From Candidatus Xenobia bacterium (GTDB lineage: Bacteria; Vulcanimicrobiota; CADAWZ01): a stretch of DNA of 64,000 nucleotides. This document shows, piece after piece, positions 29,750-43,075 of the stretch. The notes under the pieces were generated by a model. It was not told the origin of the DNA, made no database searches, and worked only from the letters and a program-made list of their open reading frames with translations. A program made the position numbers and the translations under genes. Location of the stretch: contig JAVBNT010000001.1 in NCBI GenBank assembly GCA_031551355.1, positions 64,477-128,476 on the forward strand. Reading direction: 5' to 3'. Numbering within the stretch: position 1 is the stretch's first letter; each line of letters begins with the position of its first letter.

Positions 29750-30286
29750 ATGGGTAATATATTTTTGAATGACAAAGACCACAGTGTCTTTTCATGGGAG
29801 AAACTAGGTAATATAAAGGAAGGGCGCGGTGATTTGGGGGAAGATGTTCCGGTGCTGGTATACAGGCTTATGCAGTTTACAATGCTTGACGTCCTGACTA
29901 AGAATTTTGGGCGTAAAAAGGCCAATGAGTGTTTACAGGAAGCCGGGTTTCTTGCCGGAACGGAATTTGCCCGAAATGTGCTTGATTTGAATGTAGATTT
30001 TAATACGTTTGTTGCTAATTTGCAAAAAGCGTTGAAGGATTTAAAAATAGGTATTCTGCGTATGGAGTTTTTTGATGAAAATACGGGAGAAATTGTCCTG
30101 ACTGTGGGACAGGATTTAGACTGCAGCGGACTGCCAATTACGAATGAAACAGTTTGTGATTACGATGAGGGGTTTATAGCCGGGATCCTTGAACTGTATA
30201 CCGGTAAATCTTATTCTGTGCGTGAGGTTGATTGCTGGGCCAGCGGCGACAGGGTATGCCGTTTCCGTGGGGTTCTCAAACAATAG
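29750..30286 (+). CDS. V4R (vinyl-4-reductase / hydrocarbon-binding) domain protein.
   Basis: 178 aa. Conserved Cys pattern near the C-terminus (CSGLP...C...C...CWASGDRVCRF) typical of V4R domains. Confidence 0.55.
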   Translation: MGNIFLNDKDHSVFSWEKLGNIKEGRGDLGEDVPVLVYRLMQFTMLDVLTKNFGRKKANECLQEAGFLAGTEFARNVLDLNVDFNTFVANLQKALKDLKIGILRMEFFDENTGEIVLTVGQDLDCSGLPITNETVCDYDEGFIAGILELYTGKSYSVREVDCWASGDRVCRFRGVLKQ

Positions 30287-30299
30287 AAAGCAGGCTTTT

Positions 30300-32720
30300 G
30301 TGGAAGAATGTACTGAATATTCGGACGAAATCAGAGACACATTAAAATCCGTTGCCGATACTTGTTTTGCTTATTTACGTGATGTTATTTACGATCCGGC
30401 GCACGCTTCGCTGGATCTCACACAATTACCGGAAGAGTTTGTTGACTTGGGTAAGGGGTTGCGCTTTTTCTGTGATATTGTAATTGAAACCAGAAATCTT
30501 GCCAAAGAGCTGGCCGGCGGAAATTTACAGTGCAAATTGCCGTCGCCGGGCAATGAAATAGCCGCTCCGCTTAAGACGCTGCATGCATCTCTGAGCCATC
30601 TTACCTGGCAGACTCAGCAGGTGGCAAAAGGTGATTATCAGCAGCGTGTCGAGTTTATGGGCGCTTTTTCGGAAGCATTCAACAATATGGTTAAACAGTT
30701 GGAACAGCGGCAGAGAATCACCCTTGATGAAAAATCAAGGCTTGAAATGTATGTGAATCTGGTGCTTAAGAACTGTCCTGATCCGGTAATTTTATTTGAC
30801 CGCAGCGGACAATTGGCTTATGCCAGCGATTCTTTTCTGCTATGCTGCGGCATTTCGCAAATCGACGGAATTTTAGGAAAAAAAATAGGTGAATTGTTTG
30901 CGCCCGTTGTCTCCGTTGACTTTTTAAGTGATCTTGAGATCCTGTTTGATGCCGCTGCAGTTGAGGCGCTTACAGTGAAAATAGGACAGGAGATAGATTT
31001 CAGCAATAGTGGAAATATGCGTAATTACCAGATACAGATAACGCCTATGCTGGAAGCCGGTGGTAATGCCGGTGTAATGGTTCTTCTCCATGACAATACT
31101 GACATTGAGCGGGCACTCAGCGAAGCTGAGAGGCTGCGTGCGCTTGCGGAGCAATCTTCAAGAGCCAAGTCGCTTTTTTTGGCCAACATGAGTCATGAGA
31201 TACGTACGCCGATGAATGCGATTATCGGCATGACTATGATCGGAAAATCTGCGGATGATATCGCCCGCAAGAACTATTGCTTTACGAATGTTGAAAATGC
31301 TTCGAAGCACCTGCTTGGCGTGATCAATGATATTCTGGATATGTCTAAAATTGAGGCTAACAAGTTTGAGCTGTCACCGGTAGAGTTTGATTTTGAAAAC
31401 ATGATTAAGATGGCTGTGAATATCGTAAATCTGCGTATTAGTGAAAAGCAACAGAAATTTATGATAAATATCGATCCCCAAATACCTGCGGCTCTTATAG
31501 GCGATGATCAACGGTTAGCCCAGGTAATAACTAATTTATTGGGGAATGCGGTCAAGTTCACACCGGAGGACGGTTCCATTTATCTTGATACACAGTTTTT
31601 GAGTGAAGAAAACGGCGTCTGCACGGTAAAAGTGTCTGTGACCGACACCGGTATCGGTATTACTCCAGAACAGCAGCTTCTTTTATTCAAATCCTTTCAG
31701 CAGGTGGAAAATTCGATGTCGCGCAAATTTGGGGGAACGGGGCTGGGGCTCTCCATTTCTAAAAACATTATTGAAATAATGGGTGGAAGTATATGGGTGG
31801 AGTCCGAGTTTGGCAGAGGTTCTACTTTTGCCTTTACCGTTAAGCTTGCGCGCGGAGAGGACAGAAAGCAGGAATTAAAGGGGGTAAGCGTAGATTGTAG
31901 CCATCTTCGTATTCTGGCAATAGACGGTGATGCGGACGTGTTGAACTGTTTTAAGAATATATTAAATGGCTTTGGCGTCTCCTGTGACACGGCTTCGAGT
32001 TCAGAAGAAGCTTTCCGGATGATTGAGCTGAATGGTGCTTATAATATCTATTTTGTGGACTGGAATCTGCCTGGTACTGACGGCATAAAATTAATAAAGG
32101 CTATCCGTGAAAAAGAGCAGGGCACTCCCGGCATTGCCGCACTGATTCTTTCGGATGCCGAACGTCTTATTGTTGAGGATGAGGCAAGGAGGTCCGGTAT
32201 CGCCGACTTTCTGTCAAAGCCCTTGTTTCCGTCTGCCGTTGCTGATATTATCGGCAATTCTCTCGGTGCCGTAAAATGTATGAAAGAGCCGCTGCCGGAT
32301 TCGGCCGGCATATTCAAGGGCCGCTGCATTCTTCTGGCTGAAGATGTGGAAATTAACCGTGAAATTGTAATAGCTTTGCTTGAGTCCACGCTTTTAAGTA
32401 TTGAATGCGCGGAAAATGGTGTTGAAGCTGTGCGTATGTTCCGTGAAGCCCCGGATAAATATGATATGATTTTTATGGACTTGCAGATGCCTGAAATGGA
32501 CGGCTATGAAGCCACCCGCCAAATCAGAGCGCTTGATGCTCCGCAGGCTAAAACCATTCCCATTATTGCAATGACTGCCAATGTCTTTAAGGAAGATATT
32601 GAAAGAAGCTTTGCCGCCGGTATGAATGGTCACGTCGGCAAACCTCTTGATTTTGATGAGGTGCTGGAAAAACTGTGCAGTTACCTGCCTAAAGGCATTT
32701 GCGGCAATGCTGCCCGCTAA
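30300..32720 (+). CDS. Cytoplasmic hybrid sensor histidine kinase with two C-terminal receiver domains. The track ORF starts at 30189 inside the V4R gene. The in-frame GTG at about 30300 is proposed as the start.
   Basis: HisKA LANMSHEIRTPMNAIIGMT, HATPase G-boxes, REC1 (ILAIDGD...DWNLPGTDG), REC2 (ILLAEDVEIN...MDLQMPEMDG). No TM segments. Confidence 0.75.
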   Translation: MEECTEYSDEIRDTLKSVADTCFAYLRDVIYDPAHASLDLTQLPEEFVDLGKGLRFFCDIVIETRNLAKELAGGNLQCKLPSPGNEIAAPLKTLHASLSHLTWQTQQVAKGDYQQRVEFMGAFSEAFNNMVKQLEQRQRITLDEKSRLEMYVNLVLKNCPDPVILFDRSGQLAYASDSFLLCCGISQIDGILGKKIGELFAPVVSVDFLSDLEILFDAAAVEALTVKIGQEIDFSNSGNMRNYQIQITPMLEAGGNAGVMVLLHDNTDIERALSEAERLRALAEQSSRAKSLFLANMSHEIRTPMNAIIGMTMIGKSADDIARKNYCFTNVENASKHLLGVINDILDMSKIEANKFELSPVEFDFENMIKMAVNIVNLRISEKQQKFMINIDPQIPAALIGDDQRLAQVITNLLGNAVKFTPEDGSIYLDTQFLSEENGVCTVKVSVTDTGIGITPEQQLLLFKSFQQVENSMSRKFGGTGLGLSISKNIIEIMGGSIWVESEFGRGSTFAFTVKLARGEDRKQELKGVSVDCSHLRILAIDGDADVLNCFKNILNGFGVSCDTASSSEEAFRMIELNGAYNIYFVDWNLPGTDGIKLIKAIREKEQGTPGIAALILSDAERLIVEDEARRSGIADFLSKPLFPSAVADIIGNSLGAVKCMKEPLPDSAGIFKGRCILLAEDVEINREIVIALLESTLLSIECAENGVEAVRMFREAPDKYDMIFMDLQMPEMDGYEATRQIRALDAPQAKTIPIIAMTANVFKEDIERSFAAGMNGHVGKPLDFDEVLEKLCSYLPKGICGNAAR

Positions 32721-32876: not shown

Positions 32877-33671
32877 ATGAGACTGAAAATAGGCTTGCTG
32901 ACTGATGAAACAAATGGCATTTTGCCGGTAAATTATCAATACCCTCTTTCTTCGGCAATATACAGAATAATATCAAGCTCTGATCAGGCTTATGCCGAAT
33001 TTCTTCATAGTCATGGTTATCAAAAAACAGGTTCTCTTAAGACATTTAAACTCTTCACTTTTTCCGATTTAAAAACCCCGTTTAAAATTAACAAAGACCG
33101 CCTCATTATGACTTCTAATGAGGCTAATTTTATTGCATGCTTTCATATGCCTGAAGCTCTGACGCATTTTGTTCAGGGCCTGTTTCTGAACGAGCATATA
33201 GATATTGCCGACAAGATAAGCCGCGTCAGGTTTGCGGTCAAACAGGTGGAGACGCTGCCGTTGTTTCCTGATTCCGGGGATGATTTATTGGAGGTTATCC
33301 TGCAGCCGCTGTCTCCATTGGTAGTATCTGTCGTCAATGAGAATGATCGTCAGGACTTTCTGTATCCCGGAGACGAACGTTTTGCAACTGCTCTTTTGAG
33401 TAACTGGAAGGACAGGTATTCCGTTGTTTACGGCAAGGAGCAGGCCGATGTGGATTTTGAAGAGGCTTATGTTGCGGTTGTTAATCCGGAGAAGGCAAAA
33501 TCGCGTTTGATTACCATTAAATCGGGGACTAGGGCAGAAACGAAGATCAGGGGGATGGTTGGGTTTAAAATCCGTGTGATCGCCAAGGCGAGGGTTTTAA
33601 ATCTGGCGCTTGATGCCGGGGTAGGGAGGTATTGTTCGCAGGGATTCGGGTGCATGGGGGTTGTGGGGTAA
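32877..33671 (+). CDS. cas6: CRISPR-associated endoribonuclease Cas6. Orphan: no array or other cas genes in the window.
   Basis: 264 aa. N-terminus MRLKIGLLTDE...PVNYQYPLSSAIYRII...YAEFLH closely resembles archaeal/bacterial Cas6. C-terminal glycine-rich loop GFGCMGVVG. Confidence 0.7.
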   Translation: MRLKIGLLTDETNGILPVNYQYPLSSAIYRIISSSDQAYAEFLHSHGYQKTGSLKTFKLFTFSDLKTPFKINKDRLIMTSNEANFIACFHMPEALTHFVQGLFLNEHIDIADKISRVRFAVKQVETLPLFPDSGDDLLEVILQPLSPLVVSVVNENDRQDFLYPGDERFATALLSNWKDRYSVVYGKEQADVDFEEAYVAVVNPEKAKSRLITIKSGTRAETKIRGMVGFKIRVIAKARVLNLALDAGVGRYCSQGFGCMGVVG

Positions 33672-33745: not shown

Positions 33746-34574
33746 CTGTTTTTATGAAGATAAACTTAAACAGGAATTAGTGTTTCAAGGGGGGGGTGTC
33801 ATTCCCATGTAGACGGGAATCCATCTTCGTAGGATGTCCGGAGACCATTGGGCCAGTCCGATCCGCTATTGTTTTATGTGCAGGAACAAAGAAACTCCCG
33901 ACAGCGACCATTTTACGCGTATTTTAATTTGGACAAACCTCAATGCAGCTTACTTCTTGTTGTGACCAGCACAACAAGAAGTGGTACCCTAACGGGCACC
34001 ATTTTGATTTATATTGGACGGCCTCCGCCGCATTTTATGTTCAAATCTGCGACGCTGTTCGGTTTGATGGAATCCATAAAAAATACGCGAATGGTTCCCG
34101 TTATCTCCGTTAAAGGTTCCTGCACATAAAACAACCGCATATATTCTGTGGAAGTGCCCATTGTAAGAAGGAAGATTACAATAATCTTGTCACAGCGGTG
34201 CAGAAACATGTTGTAAAGGTGAAGAAGGAGCGAAAGCTAGAAAAGCTATTCAAGCAGCTGAAAAAACTATAGTTGGTCTGAAGGCTAAATTTGTGGAGCT
34301 GCCGTAACAAAATAATTTCTATAAATTTATTATTGGGTAGCACATGGACTTACTCTTCTGCCGGGCATGGAGAAAGATCCGCAGCAGACACGGGATTTGC
34401 GGTGATATGAGATAAGTGATAGACCATCATATTCAATATGACATAAAAAGGGCTGTGAATCATCAACATCGTGGAGCATTAGAAATTTGTCAAAAGATGT
34501 ATATAGGTGCTATAATTCATTGGCGAGATGAGTTCAATAAATTTTCCTACTATTGTGAAGTATGCGCGCTAAAA

Positions 34575-34608
34575 GTAAGGCATGTGCCATTTTTCTTGGC
34601 ACGTGCCT
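34575..34608 (+). terminator. Perfect 13-bp-stem hairpin upstream of hsdM (aaggcatgtgcca-tttttctt-ggcacgtgcctt). Terminator-like insulator.
   Basis: Read directly. Followed by an A-rich stretch. Confidence 0.35.
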
Positions 34609-34745
34609 TAAAAAATCAGTTTTGTTACAATCAGTAGATGGGAAAACGGCAGAACTCACCCAAACAAGATGGCAAAGTCTGTGTTCTTCGATTTCTGTGA
34701 ACAAAAAGGGATTAACGCGGAAGCCATGCTCCAGAAAAAAGGTAA

Positions 34746-37244
34746 ATGAGAGAAATAACGATTATGGCTATCAAGAAGAGTGAGATTTACAGCCAAATAT
34801 GGGCTGCTTGTGATAAACTACGCGGAGGCGTTGAGCCTGCGCGTTATAAGGATTATATTCTGACATTATTGTTTGTCAAATATGTTTCTGACCGCTTTAA
34901 GAGCAACGATATGTGGGATATCGAAGTCCCGCAGGGCGGCAGTTTTGATGATATAATTAAGCTCAAAGGTACTAAAAATATTGGCGAGGGCATCAATATT
35001 GCTATTGGCGCACTCGCAGAAGCAAATGAATTAAAAGGCATTATTGATATTGCCGATTTTAACAGCGAGGAACTTGGCACTGATAAAGAGGCCGTGGACA
35101 AGCTCTCCGGCTTGATAGAGATATTTCAGAAGCCGGAGCTTGATTTTACGTATAACCGCGCAGGTGGTGATGATATTCTTGGCGATGCTTATGAGTATTT
35201 AATGCAAAATTTTGCCAAGGATTCCGGCAAGAGTAAAGGGCAATTTTATACGCCTGCCGAGGTTTCCCGTATTATTGCACAGATTATCGGAATTGAGCAG
35301 GCAACAGGAACGGACAAAACCCTTTACGATCCTGCGTGCGGTTCGGGTTCGCTGCTGATTCGCGCTGCGGATGCTGCCCCGAAAAAAACAGATGGAACTC
35401 CGAATGTAGCAATCTACGGACAAGAGATAACGAAAGAGACCGCTGGCCTTGCCCGTATGAACTTTGTACTGCACAATATGGCGGCGGCTGAGGTTGCCGG
35501 AAACAAGAGCACACTTGCCAATCCACATTTCAAAGATGAGCGCAATCCCAATCTGCTTAGAACTTTTGATTACATCGTTATGAATCCGCCGTTCTCCTAT
35601 AAGTCTTGGATGGACGGAATGAATATAACTGTCAAAGGTGATGTGGCAACAGAACCGTTTGGCCGCTTTGATGGCTACAAAGTGCCGCCGGAAAAGAATG
35701 GTGATTATGCGTGGTTCCTCCAGGTGCTGCGTTCATTGAAATCCGCAGGTAAAGCCGCTGTCATATTACCACACGGTGTATTGTTCCGTGGAAATTCAGA
35801 AGCGGATATCCGCAAAGAGATTATTGACCGGGGCTATATCAAGGGGATTATTGGACTTCCTGCTAACTTATTTTTTGGAACGGGTATACCCGCCTGCATT
35901 ATCGTGATTGATAAAGAGGATGCAGCAGAGCGTAAGGGCATTTTTATGATTGATGCCTCAAAAGGTTTTATCAAAGACGGTAATAAAAATCGCCTGCGCG
36001 AACAGGACATCCATAAGATTGTTACGGTATTCAATGGGCAGATTAAGCTGGACAAATACTCCCGCTTCGTGCCCAACGATGAAATCAAGAATACTAACGA
36101 GTATAACCTGAACATTCCCCGCTATATTGATAGCAGTGATCCGGAAGATTTGCAGGACATCAATGCGCATTTGAACGGTGGTATTCCTGCGGTTGATATT
36201 GAAAACAAGGCGGAGTTCTGGAAGGTCTATCCTTCCATGAAGGCAATGTTGTTCAAGCCTCTGCGCGATGGATATTATCAGCCAGTTATAGAAAAGGACG
36301 ATGTGGTCGGCGCTATCACCTCTCATACGGAGTTTATCAGCCACGCCAATATGGTGGATGGCGCGTATTCGGCATGGAAGGAAAAGGTCACACCTAAGCT
36401 GATGAACCTGAACCAAGGGGACGAGCCGAAGGCGATTATCTGTGAGTTGTCGGAATCGCTTCTTTCGGCATTTTCCGAAGTTCCATTGATTGATAAATAT
36501 GATGTTTACCAAAAACTCATGGAATACTGGGCGGACACCATGCAGGATGATGTATATGCTGTCTGCTTTGACGGCTACGGTGTTGGCCGCAAAATTTCCT
36601 ATGAATATGCCGTTAAGACGAAAAAGGTCAATGGCGTAAAAGTCGAAGAAAAGACCGACAAGGTAAAAAACTATGATGGAGAAATCATCCCCAAGGCGTT
36701 GCTGATTGAGCATTTCTACCCTGAAGAGCTAAGCGCCTTGCAAAAGCATCAGGGAGAGCTGGATGGCATTACGGCACAGCTTGAGGAGCTCGTGGAAGAA
36801 AACCACGGTGAGGACGGCTATTTTACGTCCTTAGACAATTTGAAAGACGCAACAATCAAAGCCCGCATAAAGGTTCTTAAAAAGGATGCCGACAGTGCGG
36901 TGGAGCTTGCTGTTTTAGAGGAATATCTGCTCTTGTCTGGCTATGGGTCTGACGCTAAGAAAATGTTGAAACAAGCTGATATGGCTCTGGATATGGCAGC
37001 AAGAGAAAATTACGAAAAGCTAACGGATACGGAGATCAAGCAGCTTTTGGTGGAAGAAAAGTGGTTCCGCGCTATTTATAATGGCATAGATGCCATTCAT
37101 TCCGCTGTATCGCACCGACTTTCTTACCGCGTCATCGAGTTGGTGGAGCGATATGAGTTTACACTGCCTGAATGCGAGGCGGAGGTTACTGCACTGGAAA
37201 GAAAGGTCAAATCTCATTTGGAAAGGATGGGGTTTGTATGGTAA
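34746..37244 (+). CDS. hsdM: Type I restriction-modification system, N6-adenine DNA methyltransferase subunit HsdM, with a long C-terminal coiled-coil extension.
   Basis: 832 aa. HsdM N-terminal domain, SAM motif DPACGSGSLL, catalytic NPPF (IVMNPPFSYKSW). Confidence 0.85.
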   Translation: MREITIMAIKKSEIYSQIWAACDKLRGGVEPARYKDYILTLLFVKYVSDRFKSNDMWDIEVPQGGSFDDIIKLKGTKNIGEGINIAIGALAEANELKGIIDIADFNSEELGTDKEAVDKLSGLIEIFQKPELDFTYNRAGGDDILGDAYEYLMQNFAKDSGKSKGQFYTPAEVSRIIAQIIGIEQATGTDKTLYDPACGSGSLLIRAADAAPKKTDGTPNVAIYGQEITKETAGLARMNFVLHNMAAAEVAGNKSTLANPHFKDERNPNLLRTFDYIVMNPPFSYKSWMDGMNITVKGDVATEPFGRFDGYKVPPEKNGDYAWFLQVLRSLKSAGKAAVILPHGVLFRGNSEADIRKEIIDRGYIKGIIGLPANLFFGTGIPACIIVIDKEDAAERKGIFMIDASKGFIKDGNKNRLREQDIHKIVTVFNGQIKLDKYSRFVPNDEIKNTNEYNLNIPRYIDSSDPEDLQDINAHLNGGIPAVDIENKAEFWKVYPSMKAMLFKPLRDGYYQPVIEKDDVVGAITSHTEFISHANMVDGAYSAWKEKVTPKLMNLNQGDEPKAIICELSESLLSAFSEVPLIDKYDVYQKLMEYWADTMQDDVYAVCFDGYGVGRKISYEYAVKTKKVNGVKVEEKTDKVKNYDGEIIPKALLIEHFYPEELSALQKHQGELDGITAQLEELVEENHGEDGYFTSLDNLKDATIKARIKVLKKDADSAVELAVLEEYLLLSGYGSDAKKMLKQADMALDMAARENYEKLTDTEIKQLLVEEKWFRAIYNGIDAIHSAVSHRLSYRVIELVERYEFTLPECEAEVTALERKVKSHLERMGFVW

Positions 37245-39094
37245 TACCAAAAGGTTACAGAGCTACAGATTTAGGCCTTTTGCCTGAGGGTTGGGACATT
37301 GTTAAAATTGGTGATATCACGACTGCAAAAGCTGGCGGAACACCTTCTACACTAATACCCCATTATTGGGGTGGAAGTATTCCGTGGATGAGTTCGGGCG
37401 AACTACATCAAAAGCGCATACGGAATGTTGTGGGCAGAATTACAGTTGATGGATTAAACAACTCAAGTACCCATATGATACCTCACAAATGTGTCTTAGT
37501 TGGTTTGGCAGGGCAAGGTAAAACGAGAGGTACAGCAGCTATTAACTATATTGAGCTATGTACAAATCAGTCAATTGCTGCAATATATCCATCTGATAAT
37601 CATGTAAGCGAGTATCTTTACCAGAATATTGATAGTCGTTATTCTGAGTTGAGAGAATTGTCAACTGGAGACGGTGGGAGAGGCGGCTTAAATTTAAAAA
37701 TCATCCTCAATATTCCCTTCCCATATCCTCCGTTGCCCGAGCAAGCCGCCATTGCCGAAGCTCTTTCCGATGCGGATAGCTTGATTGCATCCATTGAAAA
37801 GCTGATAGCAAAGAAAAAGGCCATTAAGCAGGGCGCTATGCAGGAGCTTCTCACAGGCAAAAAACGCCTGCCGGGGTTTAGTGGGGAGTGGTTTGAAACT
37901 TCACTCGGCGAATTATGCTATCTTGTGACAAAACAGACCGGGTTTGATTACACAGCGACTATAAAGCCCTCACTGTCTATTAAAAAGAGACAGGGGTATA
38001 TACCATTTATTCAAAACAAAGATTTTCAAGGATATGTTATTAATAACGATACCGATTTTTTCATTCCATTAATAGTAGCACAGGCATTCCCTAAAATTTT
38101 GCTCAATGAGCCGTGTTTGCTTATTTCGATCTCTGGGCGCATAGGAAACGTAGGATACTATGATAAATCGGAACTTGCATTTATTGGAGGTGCAGTTTGC
38201 ATCGCTCGATTCAAAAATATGAATCATGCTAAATGGGTGATGATTTACTTGCAATCCAGTAAAGGTCAAGTGCAGATATTTGCTAATGAAAAGTCAGGTG
38301 CCCAGCATAACCTTACGATTGCTGACATCCGAAACCTTATAATACCTATGCCAAACGAAAATGAACAAACCGCAATCACTTCTTTTCTTTCTGATATGGA
38401 CATCGAAATAGAGCAACTTGAAAAGAAGCTGGCGAAATACCACCTAATCAAGCAGGGCATGATGCAGGAGCTTCTAACGGGGCGGATACGGCTGATTGAG
38501 ACTGACAAAAAGGCTGAATCTGCACCAAAAGGACACAATCAACATTATGACGACGCCATTGCCATATCCGCGATTGTCAACGCATTTTATGATGACAGGT
38601 TTATTCTTGGGCGCGTGAAAGTACAAAAGCTCTTGTATTTGCTGCGCCGCAAGCAGGATGCCGATGTGTCCGCTTTCAAGAAGAAGGCGGCAGGGCCCTA
38701 CAATGAGGAAGCGCGATACAAGGGCGGCGAATCGATTGCTGTCAAGAGCGGATATATAGCAGTTGAACGCAGCGATAAGGGATCGAAGTTCAGCAAAGGT
38801 GGCAGTATAGCTGCTGCTTTGAAGTATGTTGACAATATGCAATCGGATATCGATTGGTTGGTTGAAAAGTTCAGGTTTTACAACACAAACAAGGAAACCA
38901 AAAACCTTGAAGTGCTGGCAACGGTGGATATGGCCGCCTGTGAACTTGAGAAGGATGGTAAGGCGGTTAATCTTGATGCTGTCAAGGATGTGATCCGTTC
39001 CAACAAGGAATGGGCGCCGAAGTTGCAAAAGACATATTTTACGGATCCGGCAATCAATCAGGCAATACTTGAAAGCAAGGAGCTTTTCAGTTGA
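37238..39094 (+). CDS. hsdS: Type I RM specificity subunit HsdS (two target-recognition domains) fused to a ~190-aa C-terminal Panacea/DUF4065-like domain. ATG overlaps the hsdM stop (ATGGTAA).
   Basis: Conserved central and distal repeats (LPEQAAIAEAL...IKQGAMQELLTGKKRL and EQTAITSFL...IKQGMMQELLTGRIRL). The tail carries the VKVQKLLYLL...GPY motif characteristic of DUF4065. Confidence 0.75.
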   Translation: MVIPKGYRATDLGLLPEGWDIVKIGDITTAKAGGTPSTLIPHYWGGSIPWMSSGELHQKRIRNVVGRITVDGLNNSSTHMIPHKCVLVGLAGQGKTRGTAAINYIELCTNQSIAAIYPSDNHVSEYLYQNIDSRYSELRELSTGDGGRGGLNLKIILNIPFPYPPLPEQAAIAEALSDADSLIASIEKLIAKKKAIKQGAMQELLTGKKRLPGFSGEWFETSLGELCYLVTKQTGFDYTATIKPSLSIKKRQGYIPFIQNKDFQGYVINNDTDFFIPLIVAQAFPKILLNEPCLLISISGRIGNVGYYDKSELAFIGGAVCIARFKNMNHAKWVMIYLQSSKGQVQIFANEKSGAQHNLTIADIRNLIIPMPNENEQTAITSFLSDMDIEIEQLEKKLAKYHLIKQGMMQELLTGRIRLIETDKKAESAPKGHNQHYDDAIAISAIVNAFYDDRFILGRVKVQKLLYLLRRKQDADVSAFKKKAAGPYNEEARYKGGESIAVKSGYIAVERSDKGSKFSKGGSIAAALKYVDNMQSDIDWLVEKFRFYNTNKETKNLEVLATVDMAACELEKDGKAVNLDAVKDVIRSNKEWAPKLQKTYFTDPAINQAILESKELFS

Positions 39095-39125: not shown

Positions 39126-42100
39126 ATGAGCGTCGGTGTAAGAGAAAAGAAAACGCAGGAGCGGGTCATCAAGCTCTTTGTGAATGAGCTGAGATATACT
39201 TATCTCGGTGATTTTACCGACCGCCCAAACAACTCCAACATCGAGCAGGAATATCTGCGTGCTTTTTTGCAAAAGCAAGGGTATTCCGATGTTCTCATTG
39301 ACCGTGCAATACGAGAGCTTGTCAACACGGCAGGCAACCAGCAGCTAAGCCTATATGACCTGAACAAAGCTACGTATGCCTTGCTCCGTTACGGCGCAAA
39401 GGTCAGCGAGAGCGTGGGACTGCATAATGTTACGGTTAATTATGTGAATTGGAACAAGCCGCTTGAAAACGACTTTTACATTGCCGAGGAAGTTACCTAC
39501 TATGGCAAGCAGCAGAAACGCCCGGATTTAGTGCTTTATATCAACGGCATTGCCTTTGGCGTTATAGAGCTAAAACGCAGCACAGTATCTATGTCTGAAG
39601 GAATACGCCAAAACCTCACCAATCAGCGCAAAGAATTTATTATGCCGTTCTTTGCCACGATTGGCATTATCATGGCGGGCAACGATTCCGAGGGGCTTCG
39701 CTATGGCGTTATAGGCACGCCTGAAAAGTATTTTCTCTCTTGGCGTGAGGATGAAACCGCCATGGATAAAGTATCTGTATCCATCCGCAAGACAAACGAA
39801 GGCTACCCCATTAAACTGGACAAAAATCTGATTTCGCTTTGCAGCAAAGAGCGTTTTGTTGAGATTCTACATAATTTCATTGTCTATGACGGTGGAACGA
39901 AAAAGACCTGCCGGCCCAATCAATTCTTTGGCGTTAAGGCTGCGCAGGACTATATTGAGCGGCGTGCAGGCGGCATCATTTGGCATACACAGGGATCAGG
40001 CAAATCGCTGACGATGGTGTGGCTTAGCAAGTGGGTCAAGGAAAATGTGCCCGATAGCAGGATTTTGATTGTTACTGACCGAGATGAACTGGATACGCAG
40101 ATTGAGCGAGTGTATAAAGGCGTGGATGAAAAAATCGTCCGCACTAAAAGCGGGCGCGATCTGGTAAATAAAATCAATGATACTTCGCCATCGCTTATGT
40201 GCTCACTGATCCATAAGTTTGGAAGGCGTGGCGGTGAAGCGTCAGAAAAAGACTATGAGAGCTTTATTGAGGAAGTAAAAGCCGCGTTGCCACAAAACTT
40301 TTCACCTAAGGGAGATTTCTATGTTTTTGTGGACGAGTGCCACCGAACACAGTCCGGCAGACTGCATAAAGCAATGAACATTATTCTGCCCAATGTTGTC
40401 TTTGTCGGCTTTACAGGAACGCCGCTGATGAAAAAGGACAAACTCACGAGCCTTGAAATATTTGGTCCGTATATTCATAAATACAAGTTTGACGAGGCCG
40501 TGCGAGATAGGGTTGTGCTTGACTTACGGTATGAAGCGCGCGAAGTGGAACAGGATGTCGTTTCACAGGAAAAAATTGACGCTTGGTTTGAATCAAAAAC
40601 GAGTGGTCTTAGCGATGTTGCGAAGGCAAGACTGAAAAAACGATGGGGCAATCTGCAAAAGGTATTTAGCTCAAAGGCACGGCTTGGTGTTATTGCGTCT
40701 GATATTATCTTTGATATGGAGACAAAATCACGGTTGCGTGAAGATGGGCGTGGTAATGCTATGTTGGTTGCCAGCAGCATTTATCAGGCGTGTAAATACT
40801 ACGAAATATTTCAGGATAGTGGCTTAAAGAAATGCGCCATAGTAACATCTTACGTTCCGAACCCTGGCGATTTGAGGACGGAAACGGTCGGTGAAGATGG
40901 CGAGACTGAAACCGCAGAGCAATATGAGATTTACCGTAAGATGTTGGACGGCAAAGATGCTGATACCTTTGAAGCGGCAGTCAAGCAGAAGTTTGTGGAG
41001 CAGCCCGACCAAATGAAATTGCTTATTGTAGTTGATAAGTTGTTGACCGGATTTGATGCACCAGCCGCCACATATCTTTACATTGATAAATCAATGAGGG
41101 ATCATGGTCTTTTTCAAGCGATTTGTAGGGTTAACCGCCTTGATGGTGAAGACAAGGATTTTGGTTTTATCATCGATTACAAAGATTTGTTCCGTTCCCT
41201 TGAAAAAGCTGTAGAGGACTATACTTCAGAGGCATTTGATAATTATGATGCGGCAGATGTATCTGGTCTGCTCAATAATCGCCTTGACAAAGCAAAAGAA
41301 CAGCTTGATGATGCGCTGGAAGCGCTTCGCGCACTCTGCGAGCCCGTAGCTGTGCCCAAAGATGATATTGACTTTATACACTATTTCTGTGGCAGAGATT
41401 CCGAGGCGTTTGATTTAGATGAGCTTGAAGATAATATGCCCAAGCGGGAGCAGCTCTATGAGCTTTCGGCTACGGTTATGCGTGCTTTTTCTGAGGTGTC
41501 CGGGGAGCTGAAAGAGAAATATTCATATACTTCGGAACAAGTAAAGGCGCTTGATGGTGAACTACATTACTTTGTTAAAGTGCGGGATGTCGTTCGTGTT
41601 GCCAGCAGGGATTATATTGATCTTAAAGGTTATGATCCTGATATGCGGCATTTGATTGACACCTATCTTTCAGCCTATCCAAGCCGTGTTCTTTCTTCGT
41701 TTGGTGATATTCCGCTGGTTCAGCTTCTTGTTGAACGTGGAATTGATGCGGTCAAAGATATGCCTGCCAAGACTAAGAAGGAACAAGAGGCCGTTGCTGA
41801 GACAATTGAAAACAATGTGCAGAAAGAAATCGTTGAAAAACGCCAGAGTAATCCCAAATACTATGAAAAAATGTCCGCCTTGTTGCGTGAGCTTATTGAG
41901 CAGCGGCGCAATGAGGTTATCAATTATGAGGACTATCTTAAACGAATCGTAGAGTTGGCGAAAGATATTCGTCAGCCGGAAAGCACCTCGCGCTATCCTG
42001 AATGTATTAAGAATAGCGCTGCGATGCGGGCACTTTATGATAATTTAGATGGAGATGAAGAACTTGCTGTTAGTGTTCACCAGGCTATCCTTGAAGCACG

Positions 42101-42230
42101 GTTAGATGGTTTTAGAGGGAACATTGTGAAGGAGAGAAAGATACGCCGCGCAATTGAAGCAGCTTTGCATGGTGATAAAGCAAAGGCGGAGGAATTGATG
42201 AAAATTGTAAATGAGCAGGGTGAATATTGA
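39126..42230 (+). CDS. hsdR: Type I restriction endonuclease subunit HsdR.
   Basis: 1034 aa. HsdR N-terminal nuclease region, helicase motifs (WHTQGSGKSLTMV Walker A, DECHRTQ DEAH-like box, FTGTPL). Confidence 0.9.
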   Translation: MSVGVREKKTQERVIKLFVNELRYTYLGDFTDRPNNSNIEQEYLRAFLQKQGYSDVLIDRAIRELVNTAGNQQLSLYDLNKATYALLRYGAKVSESVGLHNVTVNYVNWNKPLENDFYIAEEVTYYGKQQKRPDLVLYINGIAFGVIELKRSTVSMSEGIRQNLTNQRKEFIMPFFATIGIIMAGNDSEGLRYGVIGTPEKYFLSWREDETAMDKVSVSIRKTNEGYPIKLDKNLISLCSKERFVEILHNFIVYDGGTKKTCRPNQFFGVKAAQDYIERRAGGIIWHTQGSGKSLTMVWLSKWVKENVPDSRILIVTDRDELDTQIERVYKGVDEKIVRTKSGRDLVNKINDTSPSLMCSLIHKFGRRGGEASEKDYESFIEEVKAALPQNFSPKGDFYVFVDECHRTQSGRLHKAMNIILPNVVFVGFTGTPLMKKDKLTSLEIFGPYIHKYKFDEAVRDRVVLDLRYEAREVEQDVVSQEKIDAWFESKTSGLSDVAKARLKKRWGNLQKVFSSKARLGVIASDIIFDMETKSRLREDGRGNAMLVASSIYQACKYYEIFQDSGLKKCAIVTSYVPNPGDLRTETVGEDGETETAEQYEIYRKMLDGKDADTFEAAVKQKFVEQPDQMKLLIVVDKLLTGFDAPAATYLYIDKSMRDHGLFQAICRVNRLDGEDKDFGFIIDYKDLFRSLEKAVEDYTSEAFDNYDAADVSGLLNNRLDKAKEQLDDALEALRALCEPVAVPKDDIDFIHYFCGRDSEAFDLDELEDNMPKREQLYELSATVMRAFSEVSGELKEKYSYTSEQVKALDGELHYFVKVRDVVRVASRDYIDLKGYDPDMRHLIDTYLSAYPSRVLSSFGDIPLVQLLVERGIDAVKDMPAKTKKEQEAVAETIENNVQKEIVEKRQSNPKYYEKMSALLRELIEQRRNEVINYEDYLKRIVELAKDIRQPESTSRYPECIKNSAAMRALYDNLDGDEELAVSVHQAILEARLDGFRGNIVKERKIRRAIEAALHGDKAKAEELMKIVNEQGEY

Positions 42231-42937
42231 TGATCGACTTGAATGTTGGCGGGGTTGATATATCTGCTGAAAAGAAGCAAATTAAAAATATGTATATACG
42301 GGTTCTTCCCCCTAATGGCAAGGTCAAGATAACTGCACCAATCTCAGCTACAGAAGATGCAATCCGAATGTTCGCGGTATCTCGTATTGCTTGGATTAAA
42401 AAGCAGCGCCAAAAGTTTGTAGAACAACCAAGACAGACTGAGCGTAAATATGTGACTGGTGAAAGCTATTATTTATGGGGAAAACGGTATCGCTTGAATG
42501 TCATATGTAGTAATGTTAGAAATGATATTTATATAAGCGGTCAAAAAATAGTCTTACAAGTGCGAAAAGACAGTACACCGCAGCAACGTGCCAATGTAAT
42601 GGACGAATGGTATAGAGAAGTATTGAAAAATGCTATTCCTCCAGTATTTGAGAAGTGTGAGAGGCTTGTCGGGGTTAAGGCAAAAGAGTGGCAAGTGAAA
42701 AACATGAGAACCAAATGGGGTACATGCAATATACAGGCAAAACGTATCTGGCTCAATTTGCAATTGGCTAAAAAAACGCCGGAATGCCTTGAATATGTAA
42801 TAATCCACGAGCTTGTTCATCTATTGGAGAAAAACCATAATGATGTTTTTAAACAGCACATGGAGAGGTTTTTTCCCAACTGGAGGACTGTGAAAGCTAA
42901 TCTGAATGAGCAGATGCTGGAGTATATGGACGAATAG
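42227..42937 (+). CDS. DUF45/YgjP-family (WLM/M48-like) zinc metallopeptidase, commonly encoded next to hsdR.
   Basis: 236 aa. HExxH motif IIHELVHLLEKNHNDVF. 4-nt overlap with hsdR. Confidence 0.75.
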   Translation: MMIDLNVGGVDISAEKKQIKNMYIRVLPPNGKVKITAPISATEDAIRMFAVSRIAWIKKQRQKFVEQPRQTERKYVTGESYYLWGKRYRLNVICSNVRNDIYISGQKIVLQVRKDSTPQQRANVMDEWYREVLKNAIPPVFEKCERLVGVKAKEWQVKNMRTKWGTCNIQAKRIWLNLQLAKKTPECLEYVIIHELVHLLEKNHNDVFKQHMERFFPNWRTVKANLNEQMLEYMDE

Positions 42938-43075
42938 AAACGTAAACCAGAGCCTTTGAAATATGATTTAGAAGGTTTTTGGAGTCGTCGCATAACCGAG
43001 GAACATAGACTGATATATTGCATTAAAGAGGATTGTATTTATATGGCAAAATGCAGAATGCATTATCATAAATGA
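42938..43075 (+). pseudogene. yoeB: Remnant of a YoeB/Txe-family toxin gene (C-terminal ~45 codons only, no start, no antitoxin).
   Basis: Translation KPEPLKYDLEGFWSRRITEEHRLIYCIKEDCIYMAKCRMHYHK* matches the YoeB C-terminus (KPEPLK..LSG.WSRRI..EHRLVY...CRYHY). Confidence 0.6.

Follow-up and report, generated by a model that had tools for sequence, protein, structure and literature searches.

The window analysed here, a 64,000-nucleotide stretch of contig JAVBNT010000001.1 of Candidatus Xenobia bacterium (assembly GCA_031551355.1, positions 64,477 to 128,476), encodes a type I restriction-modification (RM) operon in which the specificity subunit gene, hsdS, runs far past its normal end into a C-terminal tail that is clearly homologous, in sequence and in fold, to the C-terminal, DarT-binding domain of DarG. 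This hsdS-tail fusion is a new and widespread architectural variant of type I RM systems, a specificity subunit with a DarG-type domain that is probably related to Panacea; no description of it was found in the literature searched, and the negative is limited to that literature. The tail domain has no Pfam model, and those homologues that bear names in a word-indexed protein search are called "restriction endonuclease subunit S", "type I restriction enzyme S subunit" or "hypothetical protein".

The hsdS gene is one unbroken open reading frame (ORF) encoding 618 amino acids, from an ATG at 37238 that lies inside the last codons of hsdM (ATGGTAA, 37238-37244) to a TGA at 39092-39094, and is separated by 31 bp with no intervening ORF from hsdR, which starts at 39126. 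A sequence-only reading of this DNA by a model had described the overlap with the hsdM stop, the hsdR gene downstream and an HsdS protein extended well beyond its usual length, and on all of these points it was correct. The HsdS core is complete: PF01420 is matched twice (E 5e-35), and residues 3-420 match positions 13-439 of the 443 positions of the PADLOC profile Specificity_I (E 1.5e-84). A tail-less Escherichia coli HsdS of the same RM family ends with LKQGMMQELLTGKIRLI and a stop codon, aligned to IKQGMMQELLTGRIRLI of the window protein (residue 420); because this homologue terminates at the aligned residue 420, the extension is placed at residues 421-618 (38498-39091, approximately 198 residues). 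It begins with a linker, as the first 24 columns of an alignment of 21 tail family members (the window and 20 relatives; alignment A1) are unconserved and variable in length, and the first residues of the structural model have pLDDT values below 50. The tail does contain the motifs that had been quoted from it: VKVQKLLYLLRRKQ lies at 38615-38656 and AAGPY at 38687-38701.

The tail was identified by profile, alignment and fold comparisons. The NCBIfam DarG model NF048014 matches it at profile positions 165-335 of 338 (E 2.4e-6), a match to the C-terminal part of the profile only, with a score of 24-27 bits against a cut-off of 250. The PADLOC DarG profile matches the window tail with E 6.9e-9 and 20 of the 21 family members overall (best E 1.8e-12). 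By hhalign, A1 aligns with E. coli DarG (WP_000634203.1) over 159 columns, positions 170-351 of 355 (probability 89.7%, E 1.9e-6), and with an alignment of 17 DarG proteins (probability 88.7%, E 2.5e-6). Four blocks are common to DarG and the tail (IQKLAWLL/VQKLLYLL, YYGPYAP/AAGPYA, LELLATVDW/LELLATVDMA and W..RKL.LF/W..KL.K..F), the first two in the same register in both (IQKLAWLL...YYGPYAP in DarG). An AlphaFold2 model of the tail, with the family alignment as input (pLDDT 85.6, pTM 0.84), is winged-helix-like in its N-terminal half and helical in its C-terminal half, and its sole significant Foldseek match in the PDB is to chains B and D of 7YK3 (probability 1.00, E 1.8e-4, TM 0.60-0.62, over the whole domain), which are the DarG C-terminal domain in the DarT-DarG complex of Mycobacterium tuberculosis. 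This structure surfaced by fold search only; a PDB sequence search with the tail family profile gave no match at E<=10, and a fold search of the viral structures in BFVD with the tail model gave nothing significant. No credible Pfam domain was found in the tail, with nothing at E<=10 in any of the 21 family members, and the macrodomain PF01661 has no match in the window HsdS protein.

Thus, the tail and the DarG C-terminal domain (that of DarTG2; 7YK3 chain B; WP_000634203.1 residues ~165-355), which has been shown experimentally to bind and sequester DarT (PMC7003065), have fold and motifs in common across the whole domain, and an antitoxin-type domain fused to HsdS is the right reading of the tail. 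Unlike its DarG counterpart, the tail has no macrodomain in front and no adjoining darT, is carried on HsdS, is net basic rather than acidic, and is only 15-25% identical.

When 1.84 billion cluster representatives were searched exhaustively with the family profile, the tail domain was found in 1023 clusters at E<=1e-3 and in 328 at E<=1e-30. The best 150 include 143 new representatives, and 113 of these are at least 550 amino acids long with the domain at the extreme C-terminus of HsdS. A scan of one genome per species found the domain in at least 171 species, of the Bacillota, Bacteroidota, Spirochaetota, Pseudomonadota, Planctomycetota, Verrucomicrobiota, Acidobacteriota, Latescibacterota and other phyla. 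The word-indexed search had returned only fragments of up to 352 amino acids, whereas the matches of the exhaustive search are mostly full-length, at approximately 600 amino acids; the suggestion of half-size or split genes, drawn from the fragments, was dropped because full-length fusions dominate both the exhaustive search and the genomic loci. A tblastn search of a plasmid collection with the tail gave no match, and among IMG/VR viral contigs the tail occurs at one locus only, which makes a phage anti-defence origin unlikely.

Operon layout was examined in 80 related loci (L003-L082), and is near-invariant: hsdM of ~815 codons, hsdS-tail of ~600, a gap of 0-6 kb, hsdR of ~1030 and a gene for an M48 peptidase. 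The tail is under purifying selection: where dS is not saturated, its ratio of nonsynonymous to synonymous substitution rates (dN/dS) is 0.06-0.21, comparable to that of the peptidase gene ygjP (0.02-0.11) and slightly higher than those of hsdM (0.03-0.07) and hsdR (0.02-0.05). Alignment A1 has 20 invariant positions, with sequences down to 41% identity. It is therefore extremely improbable that the tail is a non-functional relic or an artefact, either a fragment of darG in decay after a deletion or two genes joined by a sequencing frameshift. In a few relatives (L001/L002, L058 and L073) hsdS is broken and the tail follows as a separate ORF, as such an origin might have it, but the window and about 70 of the 80 loci, from many phyla, have an unbroken hsdS-tail ORF, as do the 113 cluster representatives, and the model of the tail is confident; the conservation and selection data contradict both the frameshift and the decaying relic.

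Two human-gut metagenome contigs (L001, 8900-10723, and L002) have hsdS split into a 328-aa ORF and a 240-aa ORF that comprises the last helix and the tail. The 240-aa product, one of a cluster with 82 member sequences, was seen on four contigs, in two places from different samples; hsdS may be truly split in this form, or a broken allele may be in circulation. Locus L073 (10016-11978; Nitrospirales metagenome-assembled genome OY729426.1) encodes a stand-alone 171-aa tail homologue without the first helix, 3' of an M-S type gene, and after it a full-length DarG (macrodomain and C-terminal domain, 43% identity to E. coli DarG), so that two copies of the domain stand side by side; no DarT was detectable at this locus.

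The same RM family has members in E. coli, in which HsdS has 444-457 residues and no tail, and cargo genes occupy the slot between hsdS and hsdR. Two such loci, L084 and L085, have the order rptR-hsdM-hsdS-darT-darG-hsdR-M48 (HsdS of 444 and 453 aa, respectively), the RRDM island studied in enteropathogenic E. coli (EPEC; PMC12255303). This darT-darG variant accounts for about 240 of 282 matching E. coli records, as estimated from a spread sample of 60 rows and the two loci inspected; a second variant has two DUF262 genes in the slot. The window operon resembles the EPEC island in RM family, gene order, long HsdM, HsdR of ~1030 aa and terminal M48 gene, at 46-52% identity (full-length identities of 49.5% for HsdM, 52% for HsdR and 46% for the M48 peptidase), but in the island HsdS is of normal length (444 aa), darT and darG are separate genes, and the repressor RptR is encoded. 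The window shows none of these three features and has a dead XRE-type regulator instead. The association of DarTG with type I RM operons was noted, and left unexplained, in the original DarTG paper of 2016 (PMC5179494).

In E. coli the DarG C-terminal domain is encoded directly 5' of hsdR, and in the window the HsdS tail is at that position. Since the RM family and the slot are the same, the most likely origin of the fusion is DarTG cargo located there, or an ancestor common to both. The simplest history would be a deletion of darT and the macrodomain, with the remainder joined in frame to hsdS; the alternative would be that an RM-borne domain was captured by DarG. The low identity (~25%) marks the joining event as old. 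Eleven of the 21 tail sequences also match positions ~499-681 of the 708 positions of PDLC03039, a PADLOC MTase_I model of type I HsdM, which suggests that some HsdM proteins carry a DarG-like domain. This family would have the same domain on the methyltransferase subunit and not on HsdS, and the domain would then have joined the methylase complex at least twice.

The net charge of the tail is +4 in the window and +4 to +10 in the family (mean +7.3), with approximately +9 of it in the winged-helix half, in which the basic residues R30, K35, R42 and K54 are conserved. The DarG C-terminal domain has a net charge of -4 to -9 and Panacea proteins of -10 to -17. The acidity of the DarG domain fits its reported mimicry of single-stranded DNA (Deep et al. 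2023, by its title, cited in PMC13621843). The inverted charge of the tail therefore argues against neutralisation of DarT by the known mechanism, and makes nucleic acid or an acidic partner the more likely ligand.

It is accordingly conceivable, if rather unlikely, that the tail is an extra DNA-binding or autoregulatory winged helix, which would add contacts to the methylase or repress the operon promoter in proportion to the level of HsdS. The concentration of positive charge and of conserved basic residues in the winged-helix-like half would agree with this, as would the residence of the domain on HsdS and HsdM, which are the DNA-bound subunits, and the weaker fold matches of the tail to the DNA- or RNA-binding winged helices of MarR, F-93, Sso10a, ScpB and ROQ; each of these matches is insignificant by itself, however (E >0.3). 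A homologue of RptR was found in no tail-bearing locus, while the gene is intact in the tail-less E. coli loci L083 and L084 and a truncated ORF in L085; on the other hand, other small helix-turn-helix (HTH) regulators are encoded 5' of hsdM in many tail-bearing loci.

In approximately 35 of the 80 related loci, 1-6 kb of cargo lies between hsdS-tail and hsdR or, in some, between hsdM and hsdS. Its contents are heterogeneous: AlbA/Schlafen-like ATPases (10 copies), DUF3800 proteins (8), RhuM-like proteins (3), Fic proteins (3), a DUF262 pair, and TIR-like, FRG, SIR2-like and large helicase-nuclease proteins, names that, except for DUF3800, are readings of the sequences. The same slot has been noted as a hotspot for darTG (PMC12255303). 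In the window the slot between hsdS-tail and hsdR is empty, and no toxin gene adjoins the tail, the only yoeB sequence being a truncated remnant beyond ygjP; because no neighbouring toxin is encoded, the tail is not the antitoxin of one in the window. A tblastn search with the DarT of E. coli (a PF14487 protein, E 3e-53) found no DarT at E<=0.01 in the window or in 82 related loci, although a very divergent DarT could escape such a single-sequence search; no obvious DarT-like protein was seen in the cargo clusters.

These results bear on the proposal that the tail still binds DarT-type ADP-ribosyltransferases, guarding against DarT that is encoded on incoming elements or at another place in the genome, or having allowed the loss of an ancestral darT in the manner of an anti-addiction module. 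The homology to a domain that sequesters DarT, the position of the tail where the C-terminal half of darG lies in E. coli, directly before hsdR, and the retention of the DarG-conserved motifs QKL, GPY, LELLxTVD and W..KL..F all speak for such a role. It is nevertheless unlikely, considering the failure to find DarT in these loci and their cargo, the inverted charge relative to a domain reported by title as a mimic of single-stranded DNA, and the identity to DarG of only ~25%; strong purifying selection across phyla is also hard to square with the occasional foreign DarT.

The sequence-only reading had assigned the tail to the Panacea family (DUF4065, PF13274). This assignment is not borne out: Pfam gives no PF13274 match at E<=1 to the protein or to the tail, and none at E<=10 in the 21 family members, an outcome that the reading itself had named as refuting it. 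The more general part of the claim, an antitoxin-type domain, stands in the form of a DarG C-terminal homologue, probably related to Panacea one level up. The resemblance to the KLQKLLY...GP motif is real at the level of the motif: Panacea/DUF4065 proteins, such as the SocA and PanA antitoxins, have the pair KLQKLLY ... GP[VY] in the same register as the tail. For comparison, 28 genuine PF13274 proteins were fished with a consensus-like query and confirmed by Pfam annotation and by names such as "SocA family" and "Panacea domain-containing" (alignment A2). By hhalign, A1 against A2 gave a match that is not significant (probability 6.4%, E 0.0058) and covers only the 34 columns of the KLQKLLY...GPV stretch, and Panacea against DarG was likewise not significant (2.5% with a single sequence, 0.5% with the family) with the same motifs aligned. 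An AlphaFold model of one Panacea protein (pLDDT 93.9) has 7YK3_B as its best and only notable match in the PDB, a weak one (E 0.036, probability 0.91, TM 0.45/0.37). Since this is the same chain that the tail matches, a distant superfamily link is plausible, and a 2026 paper calls DUF4065 proteins homologous to the DarG C-terminal domain, at a marginal E-value (PMC13621843). The sequence-only reading thus caught a probable superfamily link but named the wrong branch.

On the Panacea assignment, the tail would neutralise a toxin and so give the RM system a toxin-antitoxin or abortive-infection arm; the toxin would be an effector from the cargo or HsdR itself, much as PrrC is masked by EcoprrI. 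The motif in register with true Panacea proteins, the shared fold match and the stated homology are in keeping with this, as is the presence of Fic, RhuM, TIR-like, DUF3800 and Schlafen/AlbA-like genes directly 3' of the tail in the cargo-bearing loci. Yet Panacea proteins are ~145 aa long, strongly acidic and encoded next to a toxin gene, whereas the tail has the opposite charge and in the window is followed by hsdR after 31 bp; tail-less E. coli systems carry cargo too, more than half of the related loci carry none, and the profile comparisons do not recover the family, so that this role is decidedly unlikely.

The best explanation of the whole, given a probability of about 0.45, is that the DarG-type domain serves the methylase core as a tethered, accessory module for binding, by which restriction is modulated or guarded. 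The identity of the domain, its conservation, the synteny and the selection on it are established, while its origin and whatever it binds are inferred. Residues 434-618 are a folded domain of the DarG C-terminal family, attached by a short, variable linker to the normal end of a complete HsdS, and the tail is a fixed, selected part of one widespread type I RM lineage. The domain would ride on the M2S methylase core, where, being basic, it probably binds nucleic acid or an acidic partner, perhaps a phage protein, an effector from the cargo or one of the RM subunits. Its effect would be to tune or guard restriction, and not to set sequence specificity. Several points weigh against this explanation. 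Docking of cargo was rejected as a general role of the tail, more than half of the loci, including the window, being without cargo. A role as an autoregulator replacing RptR is weakened because small HTH genes are common upstream. The tail must be accessory and not needed for basic restriction, because the tail-less E. coli island gives phage defence (PMC12255303). The identity of the tail is 25% to E. coli DarG over the aligned columns and 15% to the M. tuberculosis protein, and the data allow either direction of transfer, from DarG to HsdS or from HsdS to DarG.

The PrrC anticodon nuclease is held latent by the EcoprrI type Ic RM complex, the accessory gene lying between hsdS and hsdR and the RM proteins acting as an "antitoxin". 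This is a precedent for antitoxin-like function in RM subunits, and the tail might be a built-in antitoxin or guard, through which the methylase core restrains HsdR or an effector encoded in the slot that precedes hsdR. Once a phage disables the RM complex, this partner would be set free or passed to a protease, in what would be a hard-wired version of the masking by EcoprrI or of SocA-type delivery to ClpXP. The tail has no sequence relationship to the PrrC/EcoprrI system, and the window has no effector gene; such a guard is considered unlikely. The features of the operon are collected in Table 1.

Table 1. Features of the type I RM island in the window
Feature	Position	Strand	Basis
XRE-type HTH pseudogene, 5' of hsdM	34519..34755	+	tblastn with intact 79-aa ORF of locus L004: 66% identity over 79 aa, 4 in-frame stops
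hsdM, long form, 832 aa	34746..37244	+	PF12161 and PF02384 at residues 16-467; PADLOC MTase_I PDLC03027, match 1-810 of 810
hsdS core (residues 1-420) with its two target-recognition domains and two conserved helices	37238..38497	+	PF01420 twice; PADLOC Specificity_I
Linker, residues 421-433, ETDKKAESAPKGH	38498..38536	+	Length and composition vary among relatives
DarG-C-terminal-domain-like module, residues 434-618 and stop	38537..39094	+	NCBIfam, PADLOC, hhalign, AlphaFold2 fold match, dN/dS
hsdR, 1034 aa	39126..42230	+	PF04313, PF18766, PF22679, PF11867; PADLOC REase_I PDLC03044 end to end
YgjP-like/M48-type metallopeptidase gene, last of the operon	42227..42937	+	PF01863, E 6e-61
yoeB toxin gene remnant, C-terminal half only	42935..43072	+	PF06769 positions 40-80 of 80, E 3e-18; tblastn alignment

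The island is preceded by a dead XRE-type HTH gene, intact copies of which lie 5' of hsdM in 7 related loci; it was likely the controller of the operon, and hsdM, hsdS, hsdR and ygjP are intact in the same genome. HsdM is approximately 300 residues longer than classical HsdM, with a helix-rich C-terminal extension of ~365 aa (residues ~468-832, 36150-37241) that has no Pfam match; the extension is conserved in tail-bearing and tail-less members of the RM family alike (HsdM of 812-832 aa). An M48 peptidase gene lies 3' of hsdR in about 73 of the 80 related loci. The yoeB remnant begins in frame exactly at the ygjP stop codon, and neither the N-terminal half of yoeB nor yefM is evident there, which agrees with the degraded yoeB that the sequence-only reading had placed at the end of the island. 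Upstream, a cas6 gene (32877-33671, +; PF21350 and PF01881) stands alone between a hybrid histidine kinase/response regulator gene (30189-32720, +) and the RM island; no further cas gene was recognised in its vicinity, and about 850 bp of DNA 3' of it look non-coding.

In the usual view, type I specificity subunits are scaffolds for DNA recognition and nothing else. The HsdS of the window is a specificity subunit with a conserved extra domain of toxin-antitoxin lineage, and the same fusion is present in at least 171 species. If the tail does act as a built-in guard, this would explain why DarTG is often found inside type I RM operons, and the toxin-binding domain of DarG would be a borrowed docking domain of the RM system. 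The fusion is a concrete handle on the unexplained association of DarTG with type I RM, by way of the partner that the domain may have where DarT is absent and of a possible contact of the DarG domain with RM subunits.

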